Assembly (NCBI GenBank): GCA_034417895.1
Contig: DAOULT010000061.1
Location: 22,379 to 86,378, forward strand
Length of the DNA stretch: 64,000 nt
Source of the DNA: Anaerolineae bacterium
GTDB taxonomy: Bacteria; Chloroflexota; Anaerolineae; CAZYHC01
Direction of reading: 5' to 3'
Positions within the stretch are counted from its first letter, which is position 1. Each line of letters begins with the position of its first letter. The notes under the pieces are model-generated. The model saw only the letters and a list, made by a program, of their open reading frames with translations, had not been told where the DNA came from and made no database searches. Position numbers and translations under genes: made by a program. Below are positions 1,817 to 64,000 of this stretch, piece by piece.

Positions 1817-1966
1817 AGCCCAACCATGTAGCCGGAATGCGATGGAGAACCCGACTTTCTGAGGATATCATACCACAGGAGCCTGCCCCTCGCAAACCGG
1901 CGCAGGCTCTTTGTTATTTTGGCCCTTGCCGGTTTGGTGTTTCGTAGATTGTCTGGAGGGGAACTT

Positions 1967-21813: not shown

Positions 21814-21837
21814 TTTCTTCCCTCCTGATCTCAGGTG

Positions 21838-21856
21838 ATCGTGGACGTACCACGAT
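21838..21856. promoter_or_regulatory. Inverted repeat ATCGTGG-acgta-CCACGAT, about 25-45 nt upstream of the A2M start; operator-like
   Basis: It has perfect 7-bp arms and an adjacent GCCATGGC palindrome. Confidence 0.25.
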
Positions 21857-22182
21857 GGCCATGGCGCTAAATCTACCTTAGAGACGTTGGAGCTGGCGAG
21901 AAAGTTCCCCCACGTTGCTGCTGATGGGTGCATTGTACCACAGCCTCTTCAGGGGGTCAAAGAGGACAGCAGGGGCCTGGCACGACGAACGTTCGCTGTT
22001 GAAGTGCCAGGCGGCTGAAAATTGGAAAGTCGGAAAAACGCGAAGAATATGGTATAATGTCAGGCGTGGAGCGGCCATTGACCGGCTCATTCGCAGGGGG
22101 CTGACGGCGAGGTGACACCGCTAGACGAAGGTTTCAATTTCGCATTGTGTTTATCTCCGAAGAGGAGAAAGGAGAAAATAAC

Positions 22183-38952: not shown

Positions 38953-39774
38953 GTGAGGTTCATCCGTATGGAAAGTGAGCAAACCGTGAAGCAACTTGAC
39001 AACCTTCTATCGCCGAACCAACGGCAGGCTTTGGCCGAGGTGCGTCGCAGGCTGTTGGGCGATCCCGATATCGAAGTCGAGGAAATCGTGCTGTATGGCT
39101 CCGTCGCCCGCGGGGAGGCGGATGAGGAATCCGATCTCGATCTGCTGGTGGTGACGGCCAGGCCACTCAGCCGGACTGAAAGTCACGAGAAGATAACCCA
39201 CGTTGTGTTCGAGGTGAATCTACGTTTCGACACAAACGTCAGCACCCTGGTAGTTGATCGCCACGAGTGGGAGACTGGTCTTATAGCGGTTCTGCCCATT
39301 CGAGAAGAAATCCTGCGCGATGGTGTACCATATTTCAGGCGAAATCCTTCGAGACGGAGTATCAGTATGAACACTGATGAACAGCGCGCCGAAGCAGTGC
39401 GCCGCTTTTGGGCCATGGCCCAGGAAAGCCTGGCCTCTGCCAGGCTCGTACTCGAAGCTGGTCATTATACATCCGCCCTCAACCGCATTTACTACGCTGC
39501 ATTTTATGGAGTGAGTGCTGTGCTTCTTGAGCGTCGGTTGTCTTTCAAAAAGCATTCTGGAGTTCGCACCGCGCTTCATCGAGATCTTATCCAGCCTGGA
39601 TTACTTGATTCAAAGTGGGGCAAGTTTTACGACGATCTTTTCCGGGATCGTCATGCAGGGGATTACAATGCGTTCGCTTCATTCGACCGCGAGTACATAG
39701 AGTCTCACCTTGCCCGCTGCACCCGGTTCCTGGCCGAACTTCGTCCCCTGATCACCTCGTTACCGCAGGAGTGA
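38953..39774 (+). CDS. Fused minimal nucleotidyltransferase (MNT) plus HEPN domain protein
   Basis: The N-terminal nucleotidyltransferase motif is LYGSVARGEADEESDLDLLVV. The C-terminal HEPN domain is LESARLVLEAGHYTSALNRIYYAAFYGVSAVLL ... RDRHAGDY. Confidence 0.75.
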   Translation: MRFIRMESEQTVKQLDNLLSPNQRQALAEVRRRLLGDPDIEVEEIVLYGSVARGEADEESDLDLLVVTARPLSRTESHEKITHVVFEVNLRFDTNVSTLVVDRHEWETGLIAVLPIREEILRDGVPYFRRNPSRRSISMNTDEQRAEAVRRFWAMAQESLASARLVLEAGHYTSALNRIYYAAFYGVSAVLLERRLSFKKHSGVRTALHRDLIQPGLLDSKWGKFYDDLFRDRHAGDYNAFASFDREYIESHLARCTRFLAELRPLITSLPQE

Positions 39775-49080: not shown

Positions 49081-49109
49081 TTGATAAACTTCCATACGTA
49101 TGATATAAT
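49081..49109 (+). promoter_or_regulatory. Promoter TTGATA-17-TATAAT
   Basis: TTGATAaacttccatacgtatgaTATAAT. The track ORF that starts here is spurious at its 5' end. Confidence 0.4.
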
Positions 49110-49146
49110 AATTCCAGTTCTAAGAGGCAAAATGGGGAGGTTCACT

Positions 49147-51540
49147 ATGAGTCGCAGATTTCAAATTCGCTTGTTCTGGACTATCTTCAGCAGCTTACTA
49201 TTTATCCCCATCCTGGGCCTGTTACTCCCCATGTCGGTCATCCCGACAAAAGCCCAAACCAGCAGCATCTACGGTTTTGTCACCGAGCCTGACGGAGTGA
49301 CGCCCGTGCTGAATTGCGACGTTGAGCTTTGGCCGATGCGCGCCAGCGCGCCTATAGCCTGGGATACTACCCTCATCGACGGCTCTTTCGTCTTTGCTAC
49401 CGAATCATTGTCCCCCGGCCAGTACCAGGTTATAGCCCGTCAACCCGGCGGCGCATTCGGGGCTTCTGTCCCCCATACCATTTATCTGGGGAACAACGTC
49501 ACCGATGTCAAGGTGGACCTCATCCGTCTCACCTATCCCCAGCTTGAGGGGGTGGTGGTAGGCCCGGAGGGCACCACTCCCCCAGAGGCCATAGAGGTCA
49601 ACCTGGTAAGCGCCGATGGCAAAATCTCCCAGTGGGATTCCAGCACCCCCACCAGGCACTTCAGATTTGGTGGTCTGCCGCCCGGCGCCTATACCCTTGG
49701 GGTCGAAGTGCCGGACGGCGCTCCCTTCTGGGCCCCAGGCTCGATGCCGATCACCATTGAAGAAAAAGATATCTATCAGCCCTCCAGCACCCAGTTTGTA
49801 ACCATCAAGCTGACCTATCCCCAGATTGTGGGCGCGGTCATGCAACCGGACGGCGTCACCCGTTACGAGGGAGGAGACGTCAACCTGCGCAGCGCAGACG
49901 GCACGGTCTCGCTGTGGGACAGCAGCGGCCCCGATAAAGACTTTACGTTTGGACAGGTGGAGCCAGGCTCGTACACCGTCCAGGCCATGGTGCCGGATGA
50001 CTCGCCTTACTGGCCTGCCGCGCCGGTAGAGATCATCGTCACGGAGGACGCCCAGGTGGCCGGTCCTGAGTTTGTGACCATCACCCTGAGCTATCCCCAG
50101 GTGGCAGGCGTGGTGGTGGAACCGGAAACCAACCAGCGGGTCTCCACCCCGAACGTCAACCTGTACAAAGCCGACCATTCCATTTCGGAGTGGGGTTCGA
50201 CCACCATCACCGCCCCCTTCCGCTTTGGGGGTTTGCCTGTCGGGGATTACTTCCTGGAAGCCAGTGCGGAGGGAGAAGAAACGCCCCTCCTGTCCACAGA
50301 GCCGCTGGCCGTGGCCCTGAAGGAGCCGGGCGAGTATCGGGAGAGCGGCCCCCAGACTGTGACCCTGACCCTGACTTACGTTCAGGTCAAGGGGGTGGTG
50401 GTGGAGCCGGACGGCGTCACCCGAGCCGCGGTGGAGGGAGTGAACCTGCGAAACGCGAACGCGACCATCACCCGCTGGTCCCGGACCACTATCACCAGTC
50501 CTTTTACTTTCGGCGGGTTGCCTGCCGGCGAATACGTTCTGGAGGCCAGCCTGGAGGAGACCTCGCCCTACTGGTCAACGGAGCCGCTATATGTGGCCGT
50601 CAGCGCAGAGAGCAAGTACCAGGCAGAGGCGGTCCAGTTCGTTACCCTGACGCTTTACTATCCCCAGGTGGCAGGCATCGTTGTGGAGCCGGACGGCGTC
50701 ACCCCGGCCTCGACGGGCGACGTAAACATGAAGACTCCCGATGGCGCTATCTCGCTGTGGGATACCGTCGCCGCTGGCAAATTCCGCTTTGGAGGAGTGC
50801 GAGCCGGCACCTATAACCTGGAAGCTCTGGCTTCTGAAAACTCGCCCTTCTGGAATTCGCGGGGCATATCCCTCACCATTGCCGAGGGCGAACGCTATCC
50901 CAAACAGCCACCCAGGGCTATCGTCCTGACTCTGACCTATCCTCAGATTGTGGGCCGGGTGGTAGAGCCGGATGGCGTCACCCAGCTCGGCGGCGTGGAA
51001 GCATATCTGAAGAGCGTCGATGGCACCACTGAGCAGTGGAGTACCAGCACCAGCACTACTCCTTTCCGCTTCAGCGGACTGAAAGCGGGCCACTATATCC
51101 TGGAGGTTCATTTGCCGGCCGGCGTACCTTTCTGGCCGCCAGCCTCCACGACCATCAACGTGGAGGAGAGCATCCAGGATCGCCCCCCCGAGGTCATCAC
51201 CCTGATGGCAGGATATCCTGACGTGGTGGGCAGAGTCATTTACGAGGGCCAGCCCGTGCCTGGAGCTTACCTGGGAGCTTATACCCTGGATGGTTCGATC
51301 TCTAACTGGACGTTCAGCGACGACCAGGGATATTTTGCCATCGGCGGGCTGCTCCCCGACAGGTACATCCTGGATATAACAGGCCCTGTGCCCGAAGAGG
51401 CCAGGTATTGGATCGGTCCGCCCGCCCAGATCGCCTTCGAAGTGGCGGCTGCGGAGGATGAAGGGCACACGCCTCTAGACCTGGGCGTCATCGAGTTAGT
51501 AAAATGGCCTTCGCTGGTAGACAGCCGTCTGAGTCAGTAG
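49147..51540 (+). CDS. Secreted protein made of about 8 tandem carboxypeptidase-regulatory-like (prealbumin-fold) repeats
   Basis: GGGGAGG precedes the ATG at 49147. It has a signal peptide. Repeats of about 95 aa begin LTYPQ(I/V)(V/A)G.V.EPDGVT and contain FRFGGLP.G.Y.LEA. Confidence 0.75.
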   Translation: MSRRFQIRLFWTIFSSLLFIPILGLLLPMSVIPTKAQTSSIYGFVTEPDGVTPVLNCDVELWPMRASAPIAWDTTLIDGSFVFATESLSPGQYQVIARQPGGAFGASVPHTIYLGNNVTDVKVDLIRLTYPQLEGVVVGPEGTTPPEAIEVNLVSADGKISQWDSSTPTRHFRFGGLPPGAYTLGVEVPDGAPFWAPGSMPITIEEKDIYQPSSTQFVTIKLTYPQIVGAVMQPDGVTRYEGGDVNLRSADGTVSLWDSSGPDKDFTFGQVEPGSYTVQAMVPDDSPYWPAAPVEIIVTEDAQVAGPEFVTITLSYPQVAGVVVEPETNQRVSTPNVNLYKADHSISEWGSTTITAPFRFGGLPVGDYFLEASAEGEETPLLSTEPLAVALKEPGEYRESGPQTVTLTLTYVQVKGVVVEPDGVTRAAVEGVNLRNANATITRWSRTTITSPFTFGGLPAGEYVLEASLEETSPYWSTEPLYVAVSAESKYQAEAVQFVTLTLYYPQVAGIVVEPDGVTPASTGDVNMKTPDGAISLWDTVAAGKFRFGGVRAGTYNLEALASENSPFWNSRGISLTIAEGERYPKQPPRAIVLTLTYPQIVGRVVEPDGVTQLGGVEAYLKSVDGTTEQWSTSTSTTPFRFSGLKAGHYILEVHLPAGVPFWPPASTTINVEESIQDRPPEVITLMAGYPDVVGRVIYEGQPVPGAYLGAYTLDGSISNWTFSDDQGYFAIGGLLPDRYILDITGPVPEEARYWIGPPAQIAFEVAAAEDEGHTPLDLGVIELVKWPSLVDSRLSQ

Positions 51541-52936: not shown

Positions 52937-54412
52937 TCACCACATGATCAGGCCCACGTTTATCAGGGCCTTGATCATGATCCCCAGGCCCAGAACGATG
53001 CCTGCCATCCCGCTGATCAGGGGTAAACTTTGGGCCAGGCGGTCAAGGCCGCTCATCTTTGCCAGGAAAGATTTGGAGGTGACAGTCAGGACGCTGACAG
53101 CGATCACGATGGCTCCCAGGCCGAAGCTGAAAGCCACGATCAGGGCCAGCCCGAGCAGTATCTTTTTCAGGTCTATCGCCACCAGCATGATAGCCATTTC
53201 GGTGGGGCAGGGCACCAGACTACCCGAAATAGCCAGGATAAAGATGTCTCGCAGAGGCACACGGCCTTGATCGCCACGATGATCATGATGACCATGACCG
53301 CAGCCGTGATGTCTGCCCTCGAAGTGCTCAGCCAGGTGGTTCAGGCACAGGATCATCAGCAAAAGAGCGGCGGCAATCTTTACGTAGGGGACGATGTTTT
53401 GAGGCACAAAGTAACGGGCCGCCACCATCATCACCAGGCTCAGGACGGTGGCGTTAATGGTATGGGCCAGGGTCACCACCCCACCCAGCAGGGCCGCGTG
53501 TCCTAACGTCCCCCTGGAGCCCACCAGATAGGCGGCTACAAAAGCCTGGCTGTGGCCGGGTGTCAGGGAGTGGAAAACGCCCAATACGACCGCTACAGTC
53601 AGAGCCACGATCACAAAACTCAGGCTAGAATCCGACTCCTGAAGGATGCTCCCCAGCTTCTTTTGGGCCAGGCTTTGTAACTGGCTGGGGGCCTGTTGCT
53701 GAGGGGTGACTTTCTCCGCCGGGCCGGGGGGCAACACGCAGGGCAGGTTCCGACCCTGGTAAGCGCCGCTTATGGAGGAAGAAAAGTCCTCCTCAGAGCT
53801 TTTCCCTCCGGCAGAACATCTCTTCTCCAGCCAGGCCCTCGTCTCTTCAGAGACCTCTCCCCGGCCATAGACCGCCAGGAAGCAGTTGGCCTGTTCGTTA
53901 TTGCATTGACCCAGGATATCGATCCCGCTGGATTGATCAGATTGAATCTCGTACCAGTATGAGTTCTGCCAGTCGGAATAGGTGTGGTTGGCGTATTCCA
54001 GCCGATGGACCCCTTGTATGGGACCTGTCTGCACGCGAAGACGGAGGGCGACAGGCTCCAGACCTATCGTAAACTTATCACGTTCGGGGATAACGACTTC
54101 TTCGAGCTTCCAGGCGACGGCCTCGTCGTCTATCTTTATAAGGAGGGCTTCCATCATCCGTTGCGCCCAGCCCTCCATCTCTGCCTCTGTCACCTGCATG
54201 TCGCCGCTCAAGTCTGCTTCGGCCAGAAGCTTGTGGGCGGCCAGAGTGTTAGCCCTGATCTCCAGGTTCAGGCTGATCCCCTCGGCATCGATCATCAGAT
54301 AGGACCACTGATGGGCGTGGGGATTAAGGGGATGGGCCGCCGCAGGAGAAGCGAGGAGCAGAAAGAAACTCCCTGCCAGAAACAGTGGTAGGATTCTCCA
54401 AATGATTTTCAT
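52937..54412 (-). CDS. Putative nickel/cobalt transporter (RcnA/NicO-like membrane domain with a His-rich loop) fused to a 290-aa N-terminal extracytoplasmic domain
   Basis: HSLTPGHSQ and LVPCPTEM resemble RcnA motifs. The loop HFEGRHHGCGHGHHDHRGD is His-rich. It has an N-terminal signal peptide. Confidence 0.55.
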   Translation of the reverse strand: MKIIWRILPLFLAGSFFLLLASPAAAHPLNPHAHQWSYLMIDAEGISLNLEIRANTLAAHKLLAEADLSGDMQVTEAEMEGWAQRMMEALLIKIDDEAVAWKLEEVVIPERDKFTIGLEPVALRLRVQTGPIQGVHRLEYANHTYSDWQNSYWYEIQSDQSSGIDILGQCNNEQANCFLAVYGRGEVSEETRAWLEKRCSAGGKSSEEDFSSSISGAYQGRNLPCVLPPGPAEKVTPQQQAPSQLQSLAQKKLGSILQESDSSLSFVIVALTVAVVLGVFHSLTPGHSQAFVAAYLVGSRGTLGHAALLGGVVTLAHTINATVLSLVMMVAARYFVPQNIVPYVKIAAALLLMILCLNHLAEHFEGRHHGCGHGHHDHRGDQGRVPLRDIFILAISGSLVPCPTEMAIMLVAIDLKKILLGLALIVAFSFGLGAIVIAVSVLTVTSKSFLAKMSGLDRLAQSLPLISGMAGIVLGLGIMIKALINVGLIMW

Positions 54413-54472: not shown

Positions 54473-55558
54473 CTACGGCGACCACAGGGGCCTTATATCG
54501 TCAGCCGGGTCGTCAGTCAGCCTCCTCTGGTTGGAGCCGTCGCTATTCATAACGTAGATGTTCCAGTTGCCGTCGCGCTCGGATTGGAAGACGAGGTGCT
54601 GGCTATCGGGCGACCAGGCAGGCGCCACATCGCTCCCCTGAGCGTCGGTCAGCCTGGTCAGGTTCAAGCCGTCGCTGTCTACGACGAAGATATCGGACTC
54701 GCCCTCCGAGACCACGGCCACGAACGCGATCCTGGTCCCATCCGGCGACCAGGCGGGGGAATGGCAATCGTGAGCAGACTCCAGCAGCCGGGTCAGGTTT
54801 GTGCCATCGCGGTCGATGAGGTACAACTGGTTCAGTTCGGGGTCAGCGCGCCGCGAGGCAAAAACGAGGCGCTGATTATCCGGCGACCAGGCCGGGTAGC
54901 CATCCCGGAATTCGTCACGGGTCAGGTTAAGGCCGCGCGAGCCGTCCGCCTCAGAAGCGAAGAGGTCGGTGCTGCCCCCGAAGGTGCGGGCAAAGGCCAG
55001 GCTGCTGCCATCGGCCGACCAAGTGAAATCGTAGCCATCTTCTGGCAGGCGCTCCAGGGTAACCTGGTCCGAGCCGTCGCTGTTCATGGCTACAAAAATG
55101 GGCCCCATAGGCCCGGCGGTGGAAAAGACCAGCCGGTCGTGGCCTATCCAGGACACGGCCCAGTCTTCGCCTCTCTCTGTCGTCAGCCGGGTGAGGTTGG
55201 AGCCATCGCTGTCCATGACGTACACCTCCAGGTTGCCGTCCCGTTCGGAGGTAAAGGCGATCTTATCCCCGGATGCTCGTGGCGTGGGAGTAGCCGTCGG
55301 ATTCCTTTGCAGACTTCCCGGTATGGCCTCGCTGCCTCCCGGGCCGGGCGTGGCCGTGGGTCCCGAGGGAGTAACGGTAGGCTCAATTAACACCTCCTCC
55401 GCTTCGGGCATTTCGACCGGTTCCTGGCTGCCCACGTCCCCTTTGAGGCCGGCCCGCATTCGGAAAACGGCCCACCCAAAGAAGCATGGTATCAGTATGA
55501 GCATCGCAATTATTATAGAAGTGTTTCTGCCTCCACGCATGATACCTCCGTGCTCCAA
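54473..55558 (-). CDS. TolB-like WD40/PD40 beta-propeller repeat protein, secreted or anchored
   Basis: It has repeated DGS..L..T ... D..P.WSPDG units and an N-terminal transmembrane/signal segment. Confidence 0.7.
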   Translation of the reverse strand: MEHGGIMRGGRNTSIIIAMLILIPCFFGWAVFRMRAGLKGDVGSQEPVEMPEAEEVLIEPTVTPSGPTATPGPGGSEAIPGSLQRNPTATPTPRASGDKIAFTSERDGNLEVYVMDSDGSNLTRLTTERGEDWAVSWIGHDRLVFSTAGPMGPIFVAMNSDGSDQVTLERLPEDGYDFTWSADGSSLAFARTFGGSTDLFASEADGSRGLNLTRDEFRDGYPAWSPDNQRLVFASRRADPELNQLYLIDRDGTNLTRLLESAHDCHSPAWSPDGTRIAFVAVVSEGESDIFVVDSDGLNLTRLTDAQGSDVAPAWSPDSQHLVFQSERDGNWNIYVMNSDGSNQRRLTDDPADDIRPLWSP

Positions 55559-55563
55559 TCACT

Positions 55564-57429
55564 TTAAGAACCGCTGGCCGGGGGAAGCAGCCTGAGACGC
55601 GCTTCTTCACTCATGCCTTTCAGAATGTATAGATTGTAGCCCTCTCCTTCATAGCAATGTACCAACTGGGCGTTGACCAGGTTAGCCAGGTCTACCCGTC
55701 GACCGTCGTTGACCCTGACCTGGAAGTGCAGAGGATGCCCCTCGAAGCGGACGGTGATCTCGTCCGGCTGGCTGAAATCGTAGGTGGCTTTGGTCGGCAT
55801 GTAATCCTGCAACTCCCAATAAGCCTCCTCAGTGGTCATGTAACGCAGCCAGGGGTAGTGCTCCTCGACGAAGGATAACAGGGCCTCAAGCCCGTAGTAC
55901 ATCCCGTTCTTTTCCCCGCTGTGATCGCCCCGCCAGGGAAGCTCGTGGGGGTTGCGGGTTTCAGCCGGGTCGTCGTAGGGGTAGTTGGTGGGCGTGTTTA
56001 TCACGTCATCCGGGTGGATGAAGTGGGTCCAGACCCCGAAGGTGCCCATCTCGGACAGGAGCACGATCTTGGTCGCGCCGTCGGCAGCGTAGCCATCAGT
56101 CCAGCGCGGGATGGCGTAAAAGGCTTCGTTCCAGGGCTCCGGCCCGAACTCACGGTCGCCCCCTTCGTTAAAATCGCCGAAGGCCATGCCCCCTATGACC
56201 TTTATGGAAGGAAACGCTTCGTGCAGGGCCTCCAGACCGGCTGCGTCGTACAGGTTGTTGGGGGCGATGTAGGAGAAGGGCAGAGGGCCAAAACCATCGT
56301 AAGGCCAGCGTTCCAGCGCCTGGTTCAGAGAGTCCACCATGTTTTCGGGGCCGTCGATGCGCCACCAATCCAGGCGCAGGGATTGATGGTTGTAGCCGTG
56401 CAGGGCCATCTCGTGACCCTGGGCGCACAACTGAGAGATGTAAGGACAGAAGGGAACGATCTGGTCATTAATCTCCACCCTGGAATCCACCCACTCGGCG
56501 AAGTCCCAGGGAGGCAGGATTTTGCCGTTGTAGTTGAAGGGGATGATCCAGGTGTACTTCAGGTCGTATTTGCCTGCCAGGCGCATCATATCCGGGTACC
56601 ACACCTGGCGGTAGAATTCGGCCATGCTCAGGTCGAACTCGGACTTGATGGGCTCCAGCCTGGCGTTGGAGGACGGGGCGGGAAAATCGTCCACGTGGAA
56701 GGTGGCAAAGTTCGCCAATGAGGAGGCCGCCACCTTGGGCACGCTCAACACGGACTGCACGATGAACCCTCTGAACTCTTTGACCGACAGCCAGTCGCTA
56801 TTCCAGTAGATGACCCGGCCCTTGCCATAGGTATTTTGCCAGGCTATGGGCTTACCCCCCGCGGTTTCAATCAGCACCTTGACGCCGTCCAGGAGGATAA
56901 CGTCGAAGGCGCTCCAGTCAGCAATAAAGGCTTCCTTCAGTTCCAGACCTTGCTGGCCGGGGAAAAGATCGCCCTGGAAACGGGCGCTGTCTGCCATCAT
57001 CGCGAACGCAGGTTCGCGCGGGTTGTAGATGCCAAACACCTCGTGCAAAACCCGGTTCCAGCCCCGGTAGAGCACCGCCAATCCCCCACCGTTCTTCACG
57101 AACTCCTTGATCTGCAATACCTCCGGCCCGAGAAGGTCGTAGATGTTCTCTGTGATTATGACCAGGGCGGCGTAGTCCTCCAGGTTGCCCAGGTCGGTGG
57201 TTTTGGAAAGGTCCACAAGGTCGTAGGCGATCTTGGCGTGGTCCAGGGCCGGCTCCATCTGTTCGTAGACCCTTTCACTGCCCTCCCCGCTGCTGTCGTG
57301 GAGGACCAGAAACTTCTGATTAGTCCCACCGGTCTGAGCCGACTGGGACTGAACGGAGATTATCTGAGAGCCAGCCACCATTAATAATACGATCAACACG
57401 AAAATGCAAAGGATTTTTTTCACGTTCAT
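55564..57429 (-). CDS. DUF2194-like protein: an N-terminal GATase1-like (ThuA-like) region plus a polysaccharide-deacetylase-like region (paralog 1)
   Basis: It has a signal/anchor sequence and the motifs GGGLAVLYRGWN, GRVIYWNSDWL and HGYNHQSL. It is paralogous to the adjacent gene. The family name is from memory and uncertain. Confidence 0.6.
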   Translation of the reverse strand: MNVKKILCIFVLIVLLMVAGSQIISVQSQSAQTGGTNQKFLVLHDSSGEGSERVYEQMEPALDHAKIAYDLVDLSKTTDLGNLEDYAALVIITENIYDLLGPEVLQIKEFVKNGGGLAVLYRGWNRVLHEVFGIYNPREPAFAMMADSARFQGDLFPGQQGLELKEAFIADWSAFDVILLDGVKVLIETAGGKPIAWQNTYGKGRVIYWNSDWLSVKEFRGFIVQSVLSVPKVAASSLANFATFHVDDFPAPSSNARLEPIKSEFDLSMAEFYRQVWYPDMMRLAGKYDLKYTWIIPFNYNGKILPPWDFAEWVDSRVEINDQIVPFCPYISQLCAQGHEMALHGYNHQSLRLDWWRIDGPENMVDSLNQALERWPYDGFGPLPFSYIAPNNLYDAAGLEALHEAFPSIKVIGGMAFGDFNEGGDREFGPEPWNEAFYAIPRWTDGYAADGATKIVLLSEMGTFGVWTHFIHPDDVINTPTNYPYDDPAETRNPHELPWRGDHSGEKNGMYYGLEALLSFVEEHYPWLRYMTTEEAYWELQDYMPTKATYDFSQPDEITVRFEGHPLHFQVRVNDGRRVDLANLVNAQLVHCYEGEGYNLYILKGMSEEARLRLLPPASGS

Positions 57430-57510
57430 TCTCCTCCCAGGGGCCTGGCACTTCCAAAGGGCCAGTCACCTGAGTCAAATAGACGCGCCTTCTTCCATCA
57501 TGGGTTAAAC

Positions 57511-59400
57511 TTAAAGCTCGATAGAGGGGAGTAACACCTCGAAGCTTAGCTCCTGGCCCAAGGCCCGGATGATGTAAAGGTTGTAATCGTCCCCGTTGTA
57601 AAAGTACAAGAGTTGAGCGGATTTGACGGTGGAGATATCCAGGCGTCGATCATCGTTGAACCTGATCAGAATGCAACTGGGAGCGCCAGAGAAGGCAACG
57701 GTCATCCTGTAGGGTTTGCTGACACTGTAAATCACCTCGCCGCCGGACAGCAGGTAGGTTCCCAGACGTTGGTAAGCTCCCTCGGTGGTCATGTGGTCTA
57801 ACCAGGGATAATTGTCGTGGACGAAGGTTAGCAGAGCCTCGAACCTGTCGCCCAGCCCGTCGTTTGGATCGTCCTCGTCGCCTCGCCAGGGCAGGGTCGG
57901 CGGGCCGAGAAGGTCATCAGGACGGAGGGAATGGGTCCAGACGCCAAACAGGCCCAGTTCCGAGAGGATACGCAGCCGGGTGGGGCCGTCGAGCACGTAT
58001 CCTTCGCTCCAGCCTGGCAGGTCAAATAAAGCCTCGTTCCAGGGCTCCGGGCCGAATTCCCGGTCTCCGCCCTGGTCAAAAGAGCCAAAGCCTGTCCCGG
58101 CCACCACTTTCATGGATGGGAAGACCTGAAGCAGAGCTTGCAGACCAGTCTCGTCGTAGGCGTCGCCGGGAGGAATGTAGCTGACGGGCAGGCTCCCCAG
58201 ACTATCCGTCTTCCAGCGCTGCCTGGCTGCTTCCAGGGCGGCCACCATGTTGTTGACCTCTCCCCACTGCTCCTGGCGAAGAGGCTGGTAGTTGTAACCG
58301 GCCAGGGCCATTTCGTCCCTTCTCTGGGAGGCCAGGCGGGAGATATAGGGGCTAAAGGGCACCATCTGAGCATTGAGTTCTATTTCAGGTTTCATCCAGT
58401 CGGAGAAGTCGTCAAAAGGGGACGTGATCCGCTCGTTGGAGTTGAAGGCCACCGCCCAGGTGTAATGTATGTTGTGTCTTTTGCTCAGCGCGACCATATC
58501 CGGGTACCAGACCTGGTTGTAGAACTCGGCAGGGCTTAGATCGTATTCGCGGGCCACAGGCTCTATTTTCTGCCCGGCGGCAGGGGGCGGAAAACCTTCG
58601 ATCTGGAAAGTAGCCACGTTAGCCAGGGAAGCCACGGCCACTTCCTGGACGCTCAACACCGATTGCACGATGAAGCCCCTGAAGACCTTGTTAGCCAGCC
58701 AGTCGGTGTTCCAGAAAAGAACCCGGCCCTTGCCGTATTTGCGCTCCCAGACGAGTGGCCGGGCCTGGTTATCAGTCGAAACGGCCACGACCTGCGCTTC
58801 TCCTTCTTTGAGCGAGATAGGAGCCAGGCTGCTGAACTCGCCCAACTCGCCTTCTTCCAGTTCCAGACCCTTCACGCCGGGGAAAAGGTCCCTCTCAAAA
58901 CGCACCCCCGCCGCGCTCTGGACGACCTGCGGTTCGCCGGCATTGAGGATGCCCATAGTCTCTTGTAAGAAACCGTTCCAGGCCCGATAGAGCACGGCCA
59001 ACCCGCCGCCCTTTTCCACGTATCTCTGAATATCAAGGCTCTCCTGTTCGGCCAGGTGCCTGATATTCTCTGTGACGAAAAGGAGGCCGGTATATTCTTG
59101 CAGGCAGGTATCTTCCTGGCGTTGCTCTGGCTGGCAGAACACCCTGGTCTCGCTCAGATCCAGCGGATCGTAGGTCAGCCTGGCATAGTCCAGAGCCTTG
59201 AGCGTTTGCCTGTAAACCTGCTCACCACCCTGGTCGGAGCTATCGTGGACGATGAGCACCTTCTGTGGGGGGCCGCCGGTATAGACAAATTCCGGCTGGA
59301 AGACCACCTTCGTGGCTACGACGTAGAAGCCCGCGGCCCCTAGCAAGACGAGAACCAATATGGAAAAGATTGTCAGAACTATTTTGATCATGGCACTCAC
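57511..59400 (-). CDS. DUF2194-like protein (paralog 2)
   Basis: It shares GGGLAVLYRAWN, GRVLFWNTDWL and the overall layout with 55564..57429. Confidence 0.6.
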   Translation of the reverse strand: MSAMIKIVLTIFSILVLVLLGAAGFYVVATKVVFQPEFVYTGGPPQKVLIVHDSSDQGGEQVYRQTLKALDYARLTYDPLDLSETRVFCQPEQRQEDTCLQEYTGLLFVTENIRHLAEQESLDIQRYVEKGGGLAVLYRAWNGFLQETMGILNAGEPQVVQSAAGVRFERDLFPGVKGLELEEGELGEFSSLAPISLKEGEAQVVAVSTDNQARPLVWERKYGKGRVLFWNTDWLANKVFRGFIVQSVLSVQEVAVASLANVATFQIEGFPPPAAGQKIEPVAREYDLSPAEFYNQVWYPDMVALSKRHNIHYTWAVAFNSNERITSPFDDFSDWMKPEIELNAQMVPFSPYISRLASQRRDEMALAGYNYQPLRQEQWGEVNNMVAALEAARQRWKTDSLGSLPVSYIPPGDAYDETGLQALLQVFPSMKVVAGTGFGSFDQGGDREFGPEPWNEALFDLPGWSEGYVLDGPTRLRILSELGLFGVWTHSLRPDDLLGPPTLPWRGDEDDPNDGLGDRFEALLTFVHDNYPWLDHMTTEGAYQRLGTYLLSGGEVIYSVSKPYRMTVAFSGAPSCILIRFNDDRRLDISTVKSAQLLYFYNGDDYNLYIIRALGQELSFEVLLPSIEL

Positions 59401-59430
59401 CTGTCGCCATTCCTTGACTGATGGGGAAAA

Positions 59431-61467
59431 TCACGCACTGCTGGCCTCTTCCTTTTCAGGCTCAGGATGATAGATGTGGTAAACTACGACGCGCCCGTCT
59501 TCATAATAGACGGTTATGCTGGCTTCACTGGCGGTGTTCTCGTTTAATTGCTGGTAGCGCCTGCACCAGGCCCATAAATCCTGTCCGATCTTATCCCTCA
59601 AGGCCACCGTTTTGGCCGTAGCCGGGGCGGCAAAGACCTGTTTCTCGACGAAGATGAAAACGTGATCGGTGGGAATCCCCAACTCGGGTTTTTTGAGGTC
59701 ACGGCGGTAGGTATCGGGCGAGAAGTTTTGCAGGAAGTATTCGCTGTTCATATACCAGCCACTATCCAGAATCTGGGGCAGGTCCTCGGCTGAAGAAACC
59801 ACCGTCCATTTATAGGCCAGATAATCGCTCTTGATAGAGTACAGCACCTTGACGAAGGCGTCGTATTGTCCCAGAGGCGGCCCGGCGATGAACAGAGAGG
59901 GACTCAGGACAAGCATGGCGATCAAGACCAGCACCGTCAGCCCCAGACCAATCGCCGAGAAGGGCGGAGATGAACCTGCCAGGGATGCAGGCGTCGGGCG
60001 CAATCTCCGGCCCAGGGCGTTTACCCAGGAAACCACCTGAGTCAACTCCAGGCCCAGGACAACGCACACCAGAGGCGAAAGGATAGCTCCCCAGGCCACC
60101 GGCGAGAACAATTCGGGCAGCCCGAAACGCACCGCCTCCAGGGGCAGCGCCAAAAGCAACAGGCAGAAGCCGAACAAAATCCGGCCCGCCCGGGCTGGTC
60201 GGTCGTCCTCTCCCCGAGGCAAGACCAGCAAAGGCAAGGCCAGCAAAGCCAGGTAATAGAGGGTTGTGCTTCCCATGTATTGCTGGAGAGCGAACTCCTT
60301 TTCCGTGAAAAGGCTCCCCAGGAAGCGCCTGGTTATGTCGAGGGGGCCATTGTGCCACCACAGGCCGGCCAGGAGGCCGATGGAATAGAAAATGTTCCCC
60401 ACCACCACGGCGGTCAGAGAAGCCAGGAAAAGGCGTCTCGGATTTCCTATCCGCCAAAATCTGGCGAATAGAGCAGCGGGAAAGCCCGCCACCAGGGCCG
60501 CCAGAGCCACGAAACCCACCAGCGGATGGATCAGAAATACGGAGGCCAACCCCTGAAAGAAGAGAAGCAGCGAGGCGTTCTTTCCTTCGGCCAGGTAATC
60601 GGCCAGGAAGCCAATGGTTACAGGCAGAAGGGCGATAGCCAGCTCCAGGGGGATGATCCGACCCGGGCTTAAAGGATAGATAAGCAGCCACCCGGCAAAA
60701 GAGAAAATACTGTACAGAGCAGCGACGAGAACGGCTGGCCCCCGGTTTTTGGTGAAGCGCCGCACGGTCGCATAGATGACCGCCGCCACCAAAACACCGA
60801 TCAGTCCCTCCGTGGCTCTCAGGAGCAGTCCCTCGTCCACCATAGCAAACTGGTTCAAAGCGCTCAACAGGGCGTAAGAGCCGTAAGGATAGAGACCGCC
60901 GCTGTAAACCTCGTCCCGGCCCAGACCCTTGAGCCAGTCCAGGTGGAGATACAAAGAAGGCGTCGGAGCGGCGTTGGTGAGGGGTTCGTAAAGACGCAGA
61001 TAAGCCCCGCACCCCAGCACCCAAAGCAGCACCAGAAACCAGAGCACCTGTCCTGCGGTCGGGAGCCGCTCAGGGAGGCTCTCTCTAAAAGCTTTTTTCC
61101 GCTGTTGGTACACTGCTCTTAAATCGCTCCGTCCTTCCAGAAAATCCATCGAGGTGAGCATCGCGCCTGTAGCCGCATTTTTCAGCTCTGTCAGAGACCC
61201 GCCCTCCGCTCGCAAAAACGGCAAGCCGAAGTAGAGTAAAACGTAGCTGCCCACCAGGGAAAAGAAATCGTAAAGGCCCATAAAAGCCAGGACGTGGACG
61301 ATGATGATGGTGGCGAACGTCATGCGCACCACATCTTCCCCCCAGTGTCGCTCCCCATCCTCCGGGGCAGTAGCAAATAGCTGCCTGGGAACAAGAACGA
61401 AGAGCACCACAAACCAAAAGATGACTCTGATAGCCGAGACCACCAGCCCAAGTTCGTATTTTCCCAT
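59431..61467 (-). CDS. Large polytopic integral membrane protein, hypothetical (possibly polysaccharide-related)
   Basis: It has more than 12 transmembrane helices. No family is recognised. Confidence 0.55.
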   Translation of the reverse strand: MGKYELGLVVSAIRVIFWFVVLFVLVPRQLFATAPEDGERHWGEDVVRMTFATIIIVHVLAFMGLYDFFSLVGSYVLLYFGLPFLRAEGGSLTELKNAATGAMLTSMDFLEGRSDLRAVYQQRKKAFRESLPERLPTAGQVLWFLVLLWVLGCGAYLRLYEPLTNAAPTPSLYLHLDWLKGLGRDEVYSGGLYPYGSYALLSALNQFAMVDEGLLLRATEGLIGVLVAAVIYATVRRFTKNRGPAVLVAALYSIFSFAGWLLIYPLSPGRIIPLELAIALLPVTIGFLADYLAEGKNASLLLFFQGLASVFLIHPLVGFVALAALVAGFPAALFARFWRIGNPRRLFLASLTAVVVGNIFYSIGLLAGLWWHNGPLDITRRFLGSLFTEKEFALQQYMGSTTLYYLALLALPLLVLPRGEDDRPARAGRILFGFCLLLLALPLEAVRFGLPELFSPVAWGAILSPLVCVVLGLELTQVVSWVNALGRRLRPTPASLAGSSPPFSAIGLGLTVLVLIAMLVLSPSLFIAGPPLGQYDAFVKVLYSIKSDYLAYKWTVVSSAEDLPQILDSGWYMNSEYFLQNFSPDTYRRDLKKPELGIPTDHVFIFVEKQVFAAPATAKTVALRDKIGQDLWAWCRRYQQLNENTASEASITVYYEDGRVVVYHIYHPEPEKEEASSA

Positions 61468-61508
61468 AATTACCTCGGTTGTTATAGCCAGTAAGTATCT
61501 GCCCTCGC

Positions 61509-63152
61509 TTAATAGGCCGAATAGTAATAATAATCCAACGAATTCAGCACGCGTATAAGATACCAGGTCGAAACGGCCCCAAAGACGAAAGCTCCAACAA
61601 CCAGACCAATAATGCTATACTCGTAGCTGATCACCCGGCTGAGGAAGAACCCCACTATTATGTTAACGAGGCAGGCCAGCCCCAGAGCGCGCAGGATCAA
61701 ACCAGGCCGGGAGAGGGACAGGAAGAAAACGGCGTTCAGAAGCCCCCAGGCCAGGAGAGCGTACCCCACCATCCCCCAATTGAAGACGAAGGGCGTTATT
61801 CTGTCATCGCCCACAGAGACGTCAGGTAATGTTCTGAGCCAGTTTACCACCATGTGAGTGAAGAAGATGCTGACCACGGCCACGATCAGCAGCAGGATCA
61901 GTTGCCTGAAGTAAAAAGCCTTGAAGGTCCTGTTGTGTTCCGGTACGTCCAGCATGGCGTCGAGTTTTTCCTGAGTGGGAATGATCGTGGTGGCGAACTC
62001 GTTGATGGTGTACTCCAGCATGGCGATGGTCAGGATCAGAGAGATGAGAGCCAGGTCGATGCCCACCTCGTAGGGGGTTCTGAACCAGATGATGTAGGGC
62101 GACTTCCACCCGCCATAAGAAGCCGACCAGCCAATCAGCCGATCCAAAAAGAGGAATCCGAAGTAAAATATGCCGTATACAAAATAGGGACTCACCAGAT
62201 AAGCAGTGATGGAGTCGCGGGGCAACTGGGCCAGCTTTTGGGCGCCGGCCACATCTTTGGACTTACGGGCCAGCACCTGATAACCCCACAAAAAGGCCAG
62301 GATGTTGGCCGCCAGCATCCCAAACAGGTGGGCGATGTAGATGCCCCAGGGAGTGAAGTTCATCACCACCCAGACCAGAAGCCCACCGAGCACAGTAGCG
62401 ATCAGAATCGCCAGCCACGATTCCAGGGTATAGAGGATGGAAGCGTTCAACCACAGACAGGACAGGAGCACAAAATACATCAGGCAGACGATGATCATGT
62501 CCTGCTCGAAGAAGGGCACGATCAGGTTGAAGATGTACCACAGCACGGCCACCACCACCACCAGGATCAGCCCCACCGTAAAGAAGCGATAGCAAATGCG
62601 TTTGGCTAACAGGTAACTGTCCTGTTTCCAATAGAACATGCCCCGGCGGCTGATGATCTGGGTGAACCCGCCGGTCACGATGTAACTGGCGATGGTGCCG
62701 ATGGCAATAACGGTGGCCTGGCGCTCGCTGAAGAAAAGGTAAGCCCATAGCGAAGAACTGAGCAGGAAGAGCACAATGATCTGGGCTGTCATGGGCATGG
62801 CAAACAGGCTGCCTTTGGCGTACATCAAGATGAAACGCCCTATGCGGCGGAGGGGGTTCAGCCTCTTGACTTCCCGCGGCCCGGCCTGCTGGCCTTTAAC
62901 CCGCTGGTGGAGCCTGACGTACAATTCCTCGGCCAGCTCGAACAGGTTTTCTTCGCCAAAGTCCGCTTGAGCGTCGATGGGGCGTAATCCCCTGCTTTCC
63001 AGGGTGGCGGCCACCGCCCGGGTATCCACCGGCATACCGCAGGTTTCCAGGATGAAGTCCTCCAGTTCCCTTTTGCGCCTCTCGATGGCATCGGCGGACG
63101 GTTGTTCCAGACCCATCTGGCTTATCGCTCCTTCAGCAATGCTCATCTTCAT
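61509..63152 (-). CDS. Polytopic membrane protein with a 120-aa N-terminal cytoplasmic region, hypothetical
   Basis: It has about 10 transmembrane helices. No family is recognised. Confidence 0.55.
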   Translation of the reverse strand: MKMSIAEGAISQMGLEQPSADAIERRKRELEDFILETCGMPVDTRAVAATLESRGLRPIDAQADFGEENLFELAEELYVRLHQRVKGQQAGPREVKRLNPLRRIGRFILMYAKGSLFAMPMTAQIIVLFLLSSSLWAYLFFSERQATVIAIGTIASYIVTGGFTQIISRRGMFYWKQDSYLLAKRICYRFFTVGLILVVVVAVLWYIFNLIVPFFEQDMIIVCLMYFVLLSCLWLNASILYTLESWLAILIATVLGGLLVWVVMNFTPWGIYIAHLFGMLAANILAFLWGYQVLARKSKDVAGAQKLAQLPRDSITAYLVSPYFVYGIFYFGFLFLDRLIGWSASYGGWKSPYIIWFRTPYEVGIDLALISLILTIAMLEYTINEFATTIIPTQEKLDAMLDVPEHNRTFKAFYFRQLILLLIVAVVSIFFTHMVVNWLRTLPDVSVGDDRITPFVFNWGMVGYALLAWGLLNAVFFLSLSRPGLILRALGLACLVNIIVGFFLSRVISYEYSIIGLVVGAFVFGAVSTWYLIRVLNSLDYYYYSAY

Positions 63153-63331
63153 TTTCCTCTTTCTGTCATAAGTGCCAGGCGCATGGCGCGCCGGTCATAA
63201 TAACGTTCGCCACAGTTGTTGCAAACGAGAACCTCGACCGGAATCAAAATCACGTCGTTGCCCATCCAGAAGGATTCGTTAACTGCTTTTTTTCCAATCT
63301 CAGGACCGTGACACACGACACACTTCATCAT
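63149..63331 (-). CDS. YgiT-type (MqsA-N-like) zinc-finger protein
   Basis: AGGAGAAG precedes the start ATG at 63331 (written ATGATG in the sequence). MMKCVVCHG ... CNNCGE has two CxxC pairs. Confidence 0.5.
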   Translation of the reverse strand: MMKCVVCHGPEIGKKAVNESFWMGNDVILIPVEVLVCNNCGERYYDRRAMRLALMTERGK

Positions 63332-63423: not shown

Positions 63424-63837
63424 ATGAAAAGACAAACACTCAGGGCTCTGCCCATCGAAGAAGAAGCGCTGGGCCAGGAGCCCGTCATCCTGGAACGAGA
63501 CGGGCAAGCAGTAGCAGCCATCATCCCTATCGCCGACTACGAAGCCTTCTGCGTCTGGCGCGAGAGCCAGGAACGTGAACGCCACTGGCGCGAGAACCAG
63601 GAAGCCTTCGAGCGTGAGCGCCGGGCTTACGACCGTCTGGAAAAGAGTCTGTTGGAAAAGTACAAAGGGCTTTACGTTGCCATCCGGGACGGCCAGGTCG
63701 TTGACAGCGATGCGGATGAGATGACCCTTGTACAGCGAGTCTACGAGCGATTCGGCTATGGACCAATGTACGTCCGCCAGGTCGGTGCTCCTTTGCCTGC
63801 GCGCCGTATATTCTCACCGAAAGTCGTCCGTCAATGA
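63424..63837 (+). CDS. Phd/YefM-like N-terminal region fused to a DUF5678-like C-terminal domain
   Basis: The N-terminus (PVILERDGQAVAAIIPIADYEAF) is antitoxin-like. The C-terminus is GLYVAIRDGQVVDSDADEMTLVQRVYERFGYGPMYVRQV. Confidence 0.5.
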   Translation: MKRQTLRALPIEEEALGQEPVILERDGQAVAAIIPIADYEAFCVWRESQERERHWRENQEAFERERRAYDRLEKSLLEKYKGLYVAIRDGQVVDSDADEMTLVQRVYERFGYGPMYVRQVGAPLPARRIFSPKVVRQ

Positions 63838-64000
63838 TACCTTACAATCAAACTTTCGAGCCACCGGCTCCTCTGCTCAACATCACCATCTTTGCCCCAA
63901 CAAATACCCACATAAGGGCAAATGTCCAGGCTCTATTGGATACGGGAGCAGAGATATCCGTCATTCCAGATGTTATCATCCGTCATCTGGCTCTGACTCC
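63834..64000 (+). CDS. Retropepsin-like (clan AA) aspartyl protease, 5' part only (continues beyond the window)
   Basis: The ATGA overlap with the previous stop places the start at 63834. It has the catalytic motif LLDTGAEISVIP. Confidence 0.5.
   Translation, partial: MIPYNQTFEPPAPLLNITIFAPTNTHIRANVQALLDTGAEISVIPDVIIRHLALT

Follow-up and report, generated by a model that had tools for sequence, protein, structure and literature searches.

A probable Pel-like exopolysaccharide export and modification locus with a GT-C-fold protein and a predicted pseudo-deacetylase in an uncultured Anaerolineales bacterium

Introduction

Pel is among the most widespread biofilm polysaccharides and, to our knowledge, the membrane machinery behind it has been worked out only in the form of a PelD-E-F-G assembly controlled by c-di-GMP. 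The described systems closest to the locus reported here are those of Bacillus cereus ATCC 10987 (pelDEA_DAFG) and Pseudomonas aeruginosa (pelABCDEFG). In B. cereus, the DUF2194 protein PelA_DA is the characterized Gram-positive Pel de-N-acetylase, a CE26 enzyme joined to a CBM114 module and the founding member of both families (PDB 9ZAU; PMC13254593). Its catalytic and Zn residues were defined by experiment; mutants of the catalytic motifs showed no activity where tested in vitro, and in vivo no Pel was obtained from mutants of the MT1/MT2 catalytic residues, R458, N407 or D490 (PMC13254593). In the published B. cereus model PelA_DA docks on PelG through its transmembrane (TM) helix (PMC13254593). 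In P. aeruginosa, PelA is periplasmic and has several domains, among them a deacetylase domain that belongs to CE21, not to DUF2194/CE26 (PMC13254593).

Here we describe a locus in a 64,000-nucleotide stretch of DNA (the window) from an uncultured Anaerolineales (Chloroflexota) bacterium. A preliminary description, made from the letters of the window, had proposed a possible exopolysaccharide modification/export locus, and this was borne out by the identity of DUF2194 as PelA_DA, by a PelG-like protein and by two PelF genes. Two findings had been named as counting against it, a lack of DUF2194 or CE4 similarity and a match of the membrane proteins to unrelated transporter families; DUF2194 similarity is present and no such transporter match was obtained.

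Results

Gene layout and setting

Four long co-oriented open reading frames (ORFs) were confirmed on the minus strand between positions 63152 and 55564, with gaps of 30-81 bp. They are transcribed in the order PelG-like exporter, a membrane protein of an uncharacterized family that we call X, DUF2194 paralog B and DUF2194 paralog A, so that the two membrane proteins come first, not after the paralogs as had been described. As all four genes have homologs, and dN/dS values of 0.21-0.26 relative to a relative with 80-87% identity, they are not chance ORFs. The features of the region are as follows.

63424..63837, plus strand: DUF5678-like gene, 137 aa, first gene of a two-gene insert (Pfam DUF5678, 26 bits)
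63197..63225, minus strand: sigma-70-like promoter match (TTTGCA-17-TATTAT) 5' of the PelG-like start, weak evidence
61509..63152, minus strand: PelG-like polytopic exporter, 547 aa (Pfam PF16933 PelG)
59431..61467, minus strand: X, polytopic membrane protein of an uncharacterized family, 678 aa (GT-C fold)
57511..59400, minus strand: paralog B, membrane-anchored PelA_DA-like protein, 629 aa (CBM114-like plus degenerate CE26; DUF2194, 197 bits)
55564..57429, minus strand: paralog A, membrane-anchored PelA_DA, 621 aa (CBM114 plus CE26; DUF2194, 285 bits)
54473..55558, minus strand: PD40 beta-propeller, 361 aa, membrane-anchored, with a Pro/Thr-rich linker (PD40, 143 bits)
52937..54412, minus strand: RcnA-like Ni/Co efflux-like protein, 491 aa (NCBIfam NF007454, 92 bits, under the cutoff)

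The promoter match agrees at 9 of 12 positions, and the region as a whole has six such sites against 3.9 ± 2.1 in shuffled sequence. The second gene of the insert, a clan AA aspartic protease (NCBIfam clan_AA_DTGF match), is cut by the window end. Just past that end, upstream of the operon, lie two PelF-family GT4 genes, which we read in the 22-kb locus L002; they score 344 and 186 bits on the NCBIfam equivalog NF038011 (cutoff 100) and consist of DUF3492 plus Glycos_transf_1 in Pfam. In this lineage the opposite-strand insert parts the PelF genes from PelG (L002 and L003), and it is absent from the related loci L001, L007 and L012, where PelF abuts PelG.

Also beyond the window end is a partner-switching module made up of a GAF-PP2C phosphatase, a GAF-HD(-GYP-like) protein, two STAS proteins and an RsbW-like kinase. 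A search of the flanks for glycosyltransferases or a c-di-GMP receptor, as had been suggested, yielded the former, the two PelF genes, but not the latter: neither a gene for PelD, the membrane c-di-GMP receptor built of GAF and a degenerate GGDEF domain, nor any GGDEF gene was found among the called genes of L001, L002 (22 kb) and L003 or the scanned cassette genes of L026 and L034. No c-di-GMP or other riboswitch was matched in an Rfam scan of the 22-kb locus. Nor did the Chloroflexota loci L001-L003 contain a TPR-like (PelE-type) gene, PelE being a small membrane protein with TPR-like repeats that is poorly conserved and was looked for without a model.

Downstream of the paralogs, and on the same strand, are the propeller and Ni/Co-like genes, whose presence had been correctly noted but which had been placed upstream. 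The propeller gene starts 5 bp past paralog A, is found in the corresponding place in L003/L004, L005 and L012, and is the last conserved operon gene in Chloroflexota. We rejected it as a true TolB: it scores 186 bits on TIGR02800 against an equivalog cutoff of 343, and has only its five PD40 repeats and a TM anchor with a Pro/Thr linker. In the Ni/Co-like protein an extracytoplasmic N-terminal domain is joined to an RcnA-like membrane domain that contains a His-rich loop; the protein was likewise rejected as RcnA proper (a partial NF007454 match in two stretches, cutoff 195). Its gene is present in L002 and absent at that position in the 82%-identical relative L003; it is co-oriented yet outside the conserved cassette, a lineage-specific add-on. 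We considered a functional tie to the metal-dependent deacetylase and, as the gene is missing in the closest relative, treated it as unrelated.

The DUF2194 paralogs

Both paralogs belong to DUF2194, as had been supposed, with scores (given above) far over the Pfam cutoff of 30.4. The lengths, anchoring, GGGLAVLYRxWN motif and ThuA-like N-terminal region given for them earlier all stand, with a single N-terminal hydrophobic anchor and a weak ThuA-like match in each, but they are 45% identical over their full length, not about 35%, and the HGYNHQ motif assigned to each is present in paralog A and reads AGYNYQ in paralog B. On sequence comparison the GATase1/ThuA-like region of both is the CBM114 carbohydrate-binding module, although in pairwise alignment the B. 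cereus sugar-binding residues E115, W147 and D231 have no clean mapping onto either paralog, and D231 (aligned with 9ZAU) is conserved in neither.

Paralog A aligns with 9ZAU over residues 31-581 (E = 4.6e-51). Taking the catalytic set in B. cereus numbering as D262, D263, H350, H354, R458, H488 and D491, we found it complete in paralog A (D247, D248, H344, H348, R442, H472 and D475), within the motifs FHVDDFP, HGYNHQ, IPRW and THFIHPDD. Paralog A is accordingly predicted to be an intact PelA_DA, a polysaccharide de-N-acetylase. Paralog B has E, G, A, Y, D, G and R at the equivalents of D262, D263, H350, H354, N407, R458 and H488, and only the D491 equivalent of the catalytic set is still D; seven of the nine residues named in the B. 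cereus study are lost, including all three Zn ligands, and the fold-defining motifs are kept. We predict that paralog B is a pseudo-deacetylase, a member of the family by descent and not an enzyme.

Is paralog B simply decaying? Its dN/dS is 0.26, like that of neighboring genes, which indicates purifying selection. The dead-then-live pair recurs in other Chloroflexota, with the degenerate copy in the same position in L001, L003, L006, L007, L012 and L015, and 11 of 66 metagenome homologs of paralog B are likewise degenerate. By comparison, about 60 single-copy relatives across phyla all keep the heptad D-D-H-H-R-H-D(/E) apart from L027, which reads DDRHRHD; degeneracy is confined to the DUF2194 copy that adjoins X. 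The degenerate copies have other features in common: Arg repeatedly replaces the catalytic His, a segment of about 16 aa after MT5 is lost, and the TM and linker region is conserved at 46% between distant lineages, against 13-18% in other comparisons. A neighbor-joining tree of DUF2194 proteins did not separate one from two origins of the dead paralogs, and we used the shared indel and TM-linker conservation in its place. The shared post-MT5 loss, the conserved TM and linker and the dN/dS of 0.26 together lead to the conclusion that the degenerate copy is maintained.

The membrane proteins

The two polytopic proteins had been described as having more than 10 TM helices each and no recognizable family. 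Hydropathy gave about 10-13 hydrophobic spans in each, but the 547-aa protein does have a family, PelG, of which it would be a divergent member: PF16933 is its sole Pfam match, scoring 31 bits (cutoff 29) over residues 121-544 and positions 35-452 of the 452-position model (counted as its full length). No match was obtained in an NCBIfam scan of the protein. Nine of 16 orthologs also match PelG and no other family, and only these nine reach E<=0.01. The protein carries a cytosolic N-terminal extension of about 110 aa, the motif of which is kept across phyla, and the C-terminal motif LDYYYYSAY. The 12-TM MOP-superfamily protein that a Pel system requires would thereby be present, by a marginal assignment.

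Structure prediction, which had been proposed for the membrane proteins, gave X a GT-C fold followed by a C-terminal alpha/beta domain of about 145 aa. A 38-sequence alignment was needed: an AF2 model built from four close homologs only had a pLDDT of 42 and was discarded. The closest fold matches are the oligosaccharyltransferases AglB, STT3 and PglB, and also ArnT and AftA, relative to which X has three extra N-terminal TM helices. In Pfam X has no match, to a GT-C family or otherwise, and one of its 38 relatives matches PMT_2 (E = 0.0095); hhalign aligns X with the window's PMT_2/YfhO-like protein at a probability of 67% over 94 columns. Searching a 5.8-billion-protein index again with the X family alignment returned the same four proteins only; the family, which is unnamed, comprises 666 cluster representatives.

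At the putative catalytic position of the first outer loop, 31 of the 38 members have an acid (Asp or Glu); the window protein has Ser there and its clade has T, R or A, and no acid in the outer loops is universally conserved among the 38. A WWDxG-type motif is lacking in X. An invariant acidic position is found in a cytosolic helical hairpin (E111 in the window protein; D/E in 38/38).

The preliminary description had not recognized the predicted catalytic death of one paralog, the CBM114 identity of the ThuA-like region, the GT-C fold of X or the lineage-specific nature of the Ni/Co-like gene.

Related cassettes

A genome scan found PelF-PelG-X-DUF2194 cassettes in Chloroflexota, Kryptonia, KSB1, Caldithrix, Bacteroidota/Rubrivirga and Gemmatimonadales, a set of loci biased towards DUF2194 carriers because the scan was seeded with a DUF2194 alignment. 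X always adjoins PelG in related cassettes, in at least six phyla, and the two genes often overlap by 4 bp. In Caldilineae relatives a single protein combines X with an HlyD-like periplasmic adaptor, which is consistent with a role for X in the export conduit. Diderm cassettes add a GH114 hydrolase (PelA_H-like) and a TPR protein (PelB-like) and hold GAF-SpoIIE and GAF-HD-STAS genes inside. Neither a gene for lipid-linked-donor synthesis nor a priming phosphoglycosyltransferase was found in the cassettes examined (L001-L003, L026 and L034). Some carriers, for example Rubrivirga sp. and Zeaxanthinibacter enoshimensis, are culturable.

Discussion

We consider it probable that the locus encodes one half of a Pel-like synthase-dependent exopolysaccharide system, the half responsible for export and surface modification. 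In the mechanism we propose, the PelF paralogs would polymerize an N-acetylhexosamine polymer, probably rich in GalNAc, at the inner face of the membrane, and the polymer would cross the membrane via the PelG-like protein in complex with X. The anchored live deacetylase would then partly de-N-acetylate the emerging chain, making it cationic and adhesive. The predicted dead paralog, which keeps its anchor, CBM-like module and groove, could serve as a non-catalytic polymer-binding or docking subunit that keeps either the chain or the live enzyme attached to the PelG/X machine, and activity may be switched by phosphorylation-based partner switching, not by PelD. That the product is of the Pel type (partly de-N-acetylated alpha-1,4-GalNAc) is suggested indirectly, by the CE26 enzyme and by the GH114-type hydrolase of diderm relatives; the two or three PelF paralogs mean that the polymer may not be Pel. 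The machine is not a canonical Pel machine either, since no PelD was detected in the loci scanned, though a PelE may be present.

The weakest step of this mechanism is X, which might act as a scaffold or conduit or else as a transferase of the outer face. Its first outer loop has no universal acid, and X may be catalytic or purely structural. The donors of GT-C enzymes are as a rule lipid-linked. If X were a decorating glycosyltransferase of the outer face (ArnT-, GtrC- or Emb/Aft-like), it would move a side sugar from a polyprenyl-phosphate sugar onto a Pel-like chain, and the dead paralog would recognize the decorated polymer. This we regard as unlikely: the cassette has no donor-synthesis gene, the window protein's own clade does not keep the putative catalytic acid, and the fusions found in some relatives join X to a periplasmic adaptor, not to an enzyme domain.

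Alternatively, the pathway could be a lipid-linked, Wzx/Wzy-like one in which PelF-like GT4 proteins build a repeat on a polyprenyl carrier, the PelG-like MOP protein flips it, X polymerizes or ligates it outside and the DUF2194 enzyme deacetylates it. X does share its fold with users of polyprenyl-(di)phosphate-linked donors (AglB, STT3, PglB, ArnT and AftA), the frequent PelG/X gene overlap suggests a stoichiometric pair, and PelG is in the same exporter superfamily as the Wzx flippases (PMC13254593). However, every cassette examined lacks a priming phosphoglycosyltransferase, a chain-length regulator and a polyprenyl-phosphate glycosyltransferase, both GT4 proteins score above the PelF equivalog cutoff, and the Ser of the window protein again shows that the first-outer-loop acid is not invariant, all of which makes such a pathway distinctly doubtful. 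That both paralogs are active with differing specificity, the upstream copy having another mechanism or another ester/amide target, is very improbable: it is full length, conserved, under purifying selection and intact in its fold-defining motifs, and the recurrent Arg for catalytic His could mark a new site and not decay, but it has lost both MT1 Asp, both MT2 His, N407, R458 and H488 with every Zn ligand, and catalytic-motif mutants of B. cereus PelA_DA are inactive in vitro or Pel-negative in vivo.

Returning to a Pel-like synthase-dependent system, we suggest, tentatively and as a possibility we would not bet on, that PelF-PelG-X-PelA_DA is a distinct and widespread branch of synthase-dependent secretion (Chloroflexota, Bacteroidota/Rhodothermia, Kryptonia, KSB1, Calditrichota and Gemmatimonadota). 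Here a new GT-C-fold family would replace PelD/PelE as the obligate membrane partner of PelG, perhaps linking export with anchoring or with a lipid-linked step, partner switching would take over control from a c-di-GMP receptor, and in Anaerolineae a pseudo-deacetylase subunit would hold the polymer at the machine. The locus and its related cassettes offer a handle on how PelG-type exporters are partnered and gated. The conserved, apparently dead CE26/CBM114 copy is a natural separation-of-function variant which could show whether the non-catalytic parts of PelA_DA act in polymer binding, PelG docking or synthase feedback.

Comparison with known systems

Partner-switching control of the Syp exopolysaccharide of Vibrio fischeri reportedly involves SypA and SypE. 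The module described here resembles it in combining a STAS antagonist with an RsbW-type kinase and a PP2C phosphatase alongside polysaccharide genes, and differs in its GAF sensor domains, its HD(-GYP-like) protein and its position outside the window. Unlike the GT-C glycosyltransferases (AglB/STT3/PglB, ArnT, AftA and the PMTs), X has as genomic partners a cytoplasmic GT4 synthase and a PelG-like protein, not enzymes of lipid-linked donors. With P. aeruginosa pelABCDEFG the locus shares the PelF/PelG core and the requirement for a polymer deacetylase, and the GH114 and TPR proteins of diderm relatives recall PelA_H and PelB, whereas here the PelB/PelC outer-membrane export is absent and the PelD/PelE inner-membrane partners are undetected.

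The closest likeness is to pelDEA_DAFG of B. cereus ATCC 10987, which has a PelF GT4 synthase, a PelG exporter and a DUF2194 deacetylase anchored at its N-terminus; this deacetylase agrees with paralog A in its three-domain layout and in its catalytic and Zn residues. Relative to that system, PelD is undetected and PelE unrecognizable in our locus, there are two PelF paralogs, PelG carries the conserved N-terminal extension of about 110 aa, and control appears to be by partner switching instead of by a c-di-GMP-binding PelD; the locus further adds the GT-C-fold protein, the conserved PelA_DA copy predicted to be dead and the PD40 propeller. What sets it apart from textbook Pel is that conserved degenerate deacetylase copy, together with a GT-C-fold protein in the place usually taken by PelD and PelE.

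Gene layout of the operon

Six closely spaced ORFs occupy the minus strand from 52.9 to 63.2 kb, with intergenic gaps, in order from the PelG-like to the RcnA-like gene, of 41, 30, 81, 5 and 60 bp.

Features of the operon and its upstream flank (window positions)
63424..63837, plus strand, DUF5678-like protein, 137 aa, first gene of an opposite-strand pair
63225..63197, minus strand, weak sigma-70-like match just upstream of the PelG-like gene
63152..61509, minus strand, PelG-like protein, 547 aa
61467..59431, minus strand, X, polytopic membrane protein, 678 aa
59400..57511, minus strand, paralog B (DUF2194), 629 aa
57429..55564, minus strand, paralog A (DUF2194), 621 aa
55558..54473, minus strand, PD40 propeller, 361 aa
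54412..52937, minus strand, RcnA-like protein, 491 aa

The span proposed in the preliminary description does cover the four genes from the PelG-like gene to paralog A, but its gene order has to be reversed: the membrane proteins are transcribed first, and the propeller and Ni/Co-like genes last. The latter (52937-54412, minus strand, 491 aa) encodes a protein in which an N-terminal extracytoplasmic domain of ~230 aa is joined to an RcnA-like Ni/Co efflux membrane domain containing a His-rich loop. It is co-oriented with the operon, yet it is missing from the closest relative.

Several other genes in the window deserve mention. A 949-aa protein (1919-4768, plus strand) unusually pairs a NACHT/STAND NTPase with an FGE-sulfatase (formylglycine-generating-enzyme-like) domain at its C-terminus, and a 2044-aa bacterial alpha-2-macroglobulin (15799-21933, minus strand) carries four N-terminal Big_5 Ig-like domains. 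DUF11 repeats are found in a secreted thermolysin-family (M4) metallopeptidase of 1157 aa (11568-15041, minus strand), and further DUF11-containing proteins lie at 22147-23892 and 25928-26554. An 819-aa protein (49081-51540, plus strand) consists of about eight similar beta-sandwich repeats of ~95 residues (CarboxypepD_reg/SdrD_B-like) and is followed by a Pro/Thr-rich protein of 272 aa that belongs to no family. Finally, within an ABC sugar-transporter operon, one ORF (38953-39774, plus strand, 273 aa) joins a minimal nucleotidyltransferase (NTP_transf_2) to HEPN, domains that usually form a two-gene toxin-antitoxin pair.

The PelG-like protein and its partner X

The only Pfam match of the 547-aa protein is PelG (31 bits, cutoff 29; residues 121-544 aligned to model positions 35-452), and it has no NCBIfam match. 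Nine of 16 orthologues in related cassettes match PelG and nothing else, and the subfamily shares a conserved cytosolic N-terminal motif of ~60 residues and a C-terminal LDYYYYSAY. By sequence, its assignment as a divergent PelG is marginal.

No Pfam or NCBIfam family matches X. A word-indexed search of 5.8 billion proteins returned three sequences besides X itself, and a full HMMER search yielded 666 cluster representatives at E<=1e-3 (169 at E<=1e-30), nearly all of 630-730 aa among the 150 matches listed; no Pfam family covers these relatives. An AF2 model built from a 38-sequence alignment (pLDDT 87.1, pTM 0.89; a 4-sequence model was unusable) gave 13 significant Foldseek matches, every one of them GT-C, and we regard X as having a predicted GT-C fold. 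Whether it is a catalytic GT-C protein is another matter, and the residues of the family do not support it: the 38 aligned members share no acidic residue across the first outer loop, and the best candidate column, Asp/Glu in 31 of 38, is Ser in the window's X, while its clade has T, R or A. Around that loop R158, Y173, K180 and G196 are nearly invariant, as are I545, W554, G570, F578, E608 and W634 of the C-terminal domain. The position of E111 is Asp/Glu in all 38 members, and its loop, with nine K+R in 56 residues, is assigned to the cytosolic side from charge.

Two further large membrane proteins of the window (32212-35061, minus strand, 949 aa; 45643-48390, plus strand, 915 aa) belong to the PMT_2/YfhO/PTPS_related group of GT-C proteins, and the window therefore holds three GT-C-fold proteins. 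An hhalign comparison of X with the window's PMT_2/YfhO-like protein gave a probability of only 67%. Caldilineae relatives carry X fused to an HlyD-type periplasmic adaptor, and this would fit a place for X in the export conduit. Proteins with this C-terminal HlyD-type membrane-fusion domain, of 1264-1379 aa, include L016 620-4759 (Caldilineaceae), P0011 and P0013.

Genomic context and distribution of the cassette

Flanking genes were read around X from contig CAZHQI010000007.1 (GCA_964534025.1), which carries the window's own locus (L002 in our genome scan). Upstream of the PelG-like gene lie two GT4 genes scoring above the threshold of the NCBIfam PelF equivalog (344 and 186 bits, cutoff 100), an RsbW-like kinase, two STAS anti-sigma antagonists, a GAF-HD protein with HD-GYP-like similarity and a GAF-GAF-SpoIIE (PP2C) phosphatase, an order that is the same in the 82% relative, L003. 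In the 43% relative, L001, three GT4 genes, two of which carry a PelF-type DUF3492 region, precede the PelG-like gene, X and two DUF2194 genes. Among the called genes of these three loci, no GGDEF protein, member of the PelD family or TPR protein was detected.

Immediately upstream of the PelG-like gene of L002 is an opposite-strand pair encoding the DUF5678-like protein and a clan AA aspartic protease (137 aa and 126 aa; window 63424-64000, plus strand; L002 7254-8044), located between the PelF genes and PelG. The 82% relative also has the pair. In L001 and less closely related cassettes it is absent, and PelF directly adjoins PelG there. The pair resembles a small module, mobile or toxin-antitoxin-like, that has split the operon.

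We mapped local HMMs for PelF, PelG, X and DUF2194 onto 72 loci. The PelF-PelG-X-DUF2194 cassette occurs in Thermoflexia, Caldilineae, Kryptonia, KSB1, Caldithrix, Cytophagia, Rubrivirga/Rubricoccaceae, Flavobacteriaceae and Gemmatimonadales, frequently with a 4-bp overlap of PelG and X. In KSB1, Cytophagia and Caldithrix, GAF-SpoIIE and GAF-HD-STAS genes lie within the cassette, and the gene after DUF2194 encodes a TPR protein; the Rubrivirga version has, after DUF2194, both a TPR protein and a hydrolase of the GH114 type. The extra genes recall PelB and the hydrolase of PelA in Pel systems, which strengthens the analogy with Pel. In Chloroflexota an anchored PD40 propeller takes this position instead (L003/L004, L005, L012). 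Alphaproteobacterial DUF2194 loci are without PelG and X, which points to a second, different polysaccharide system using a CE26-type deacetylase. At L020, L021, L023, L025, L045, L046 and other such loci a catalytically intact DUF2194 gene neighbors a divergent, oppositely oriented GT4 gene.

Could X act in some other pathway? It might be a side-chain transferase, which we consider unlikely, or, less likely still, the polymerase or ligase of a lipid-linked Wzx/Wzy-like pathway. Both would be expected to bring donor-synthesis and priming genes, but these are missing from every cassette examined.

An intact and a degenerate deacetylase

Both paralogs match Pfam DUF2194 (285 and 197 bits, cutoff 30.4), each has one N-terminal hydrophobic anchor, and they are 45% identical over their full length rather than the ~35% first estimated. 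Residues 31-581 of paralog A match PDB 9ZAU (E = 4.6e-51), the Bacillus cereus PelA_DA described in May 2026, a Zn-binding polysaccharide de-N-acetylase acting on alpha-1,4-GalNAc (PMC13254593). The N-terminal region initially read as GATase1/ThuA-like does give weak ThuA-like matches in both paralogs, but because of the match to PelA_DA it is better taken as the CBM114 module.

In PelA_DA the base is D262, activated by R458, the Zn ligands are D263, H350 and H354, and the acid is H488, activated by D491; those catalytic-motif mutants that were assayed in vitro were inactive, and MT1/MT2 catalytic-residue, R458, N407 and D490 mutants made no Pel in vivo (PMC13254593). Paralog A keeps all the named residues (FHVDDFP, HGYNHQ, APNN, IPRW, THFIHPDD). 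In paralog B (FQIEGFP, AGYNYQ, PPGD, LPGW, THSLRPDD) seven of nine are replaced, all three Zn ligands among them, and this contradicts the proposal that both paralogs are active deacetylases, which we consider highly improbable.

Is the dead copy simply a decaying gene? We scanned genomes, one per species, with a DUF2194 alignment. Of ~60 single-copy proteins, ranging from Chloroflexota to Alphaproteobacteria, all but L027 (DDRHRHD) have an intact heptad D-D-H-H-R-H-D(/E), and so does the downstream member of tandem pairs. Degeneration is confined to the upstream member, adjoining X, at L001, L002, L003/L004, L006, L007, L012 and L015, all Chloroflexota; at L016 (Caldilineaceae) both copies are catalytically intact. 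Among metagenome homologues of B, 11 of 66 are degenerate, with Arg usual at the catalytic His position. All degenerate copies also lack a segment of ~16 residues after motif 5 ("nyp...rnp") that is present in the intact proteins of the subfamily. Against L003 (80-87% identical), dN/dS of B is 0.26, near the values of its neighbors (PelG 0.22, X 0.24, A 0.23, PD40 0.21), and B is therefore kept by purifying selection. To judge from these sequences, the dead copy is a conserved feature rather than decay.

Between B and the upstream copy of the distant L001, the TM-plus-linker shows 46% identity, compared with 13-18% in other comparisons, which argues for orthology of the two and for a conserved membrane contact. 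An NJ tree did not resolve whether the dead copy arose once or twice. In a published AF model the TM helix of PelA_DA docks on PelG (PMC13254593). From this docking and the conserved TM-plus-linker we infer that B may be a subunit specialized for docking or polymer holding, leaving the chemistry to A.

Proposed working and comparison with known Pel systems

We propose that the PelF paralogs synthesize an N-acetylhexosamine polymer that would be exported by a PelG-like/X complex. Paralog A would partially de-N-acetylate it at the membrane surface, where B would bind or dock without catalysis, and the PD40 propeller may help the polymer through the envelope or help to retain it there. The PP2C/STAS/kinase module, the GAF sensors and the HD-GYP-like protein would switch the machine, replacing PelD.

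In the literature searched, Pel loci are described from Proteobacteria, Firmicutes, Actinobacteria, Thermotogae and others, PelD being a key part in every case, and no paper pairs PelF/PelG with Chloroflexi or GT-C with PelG. The DUF2194 assignment is already known (2026). New here are the PelD-less cassette and its GT-C-fold partner family, together with the embedded genes predicted to act in partner switching and the conserved, putative pseudo-deacetylase.
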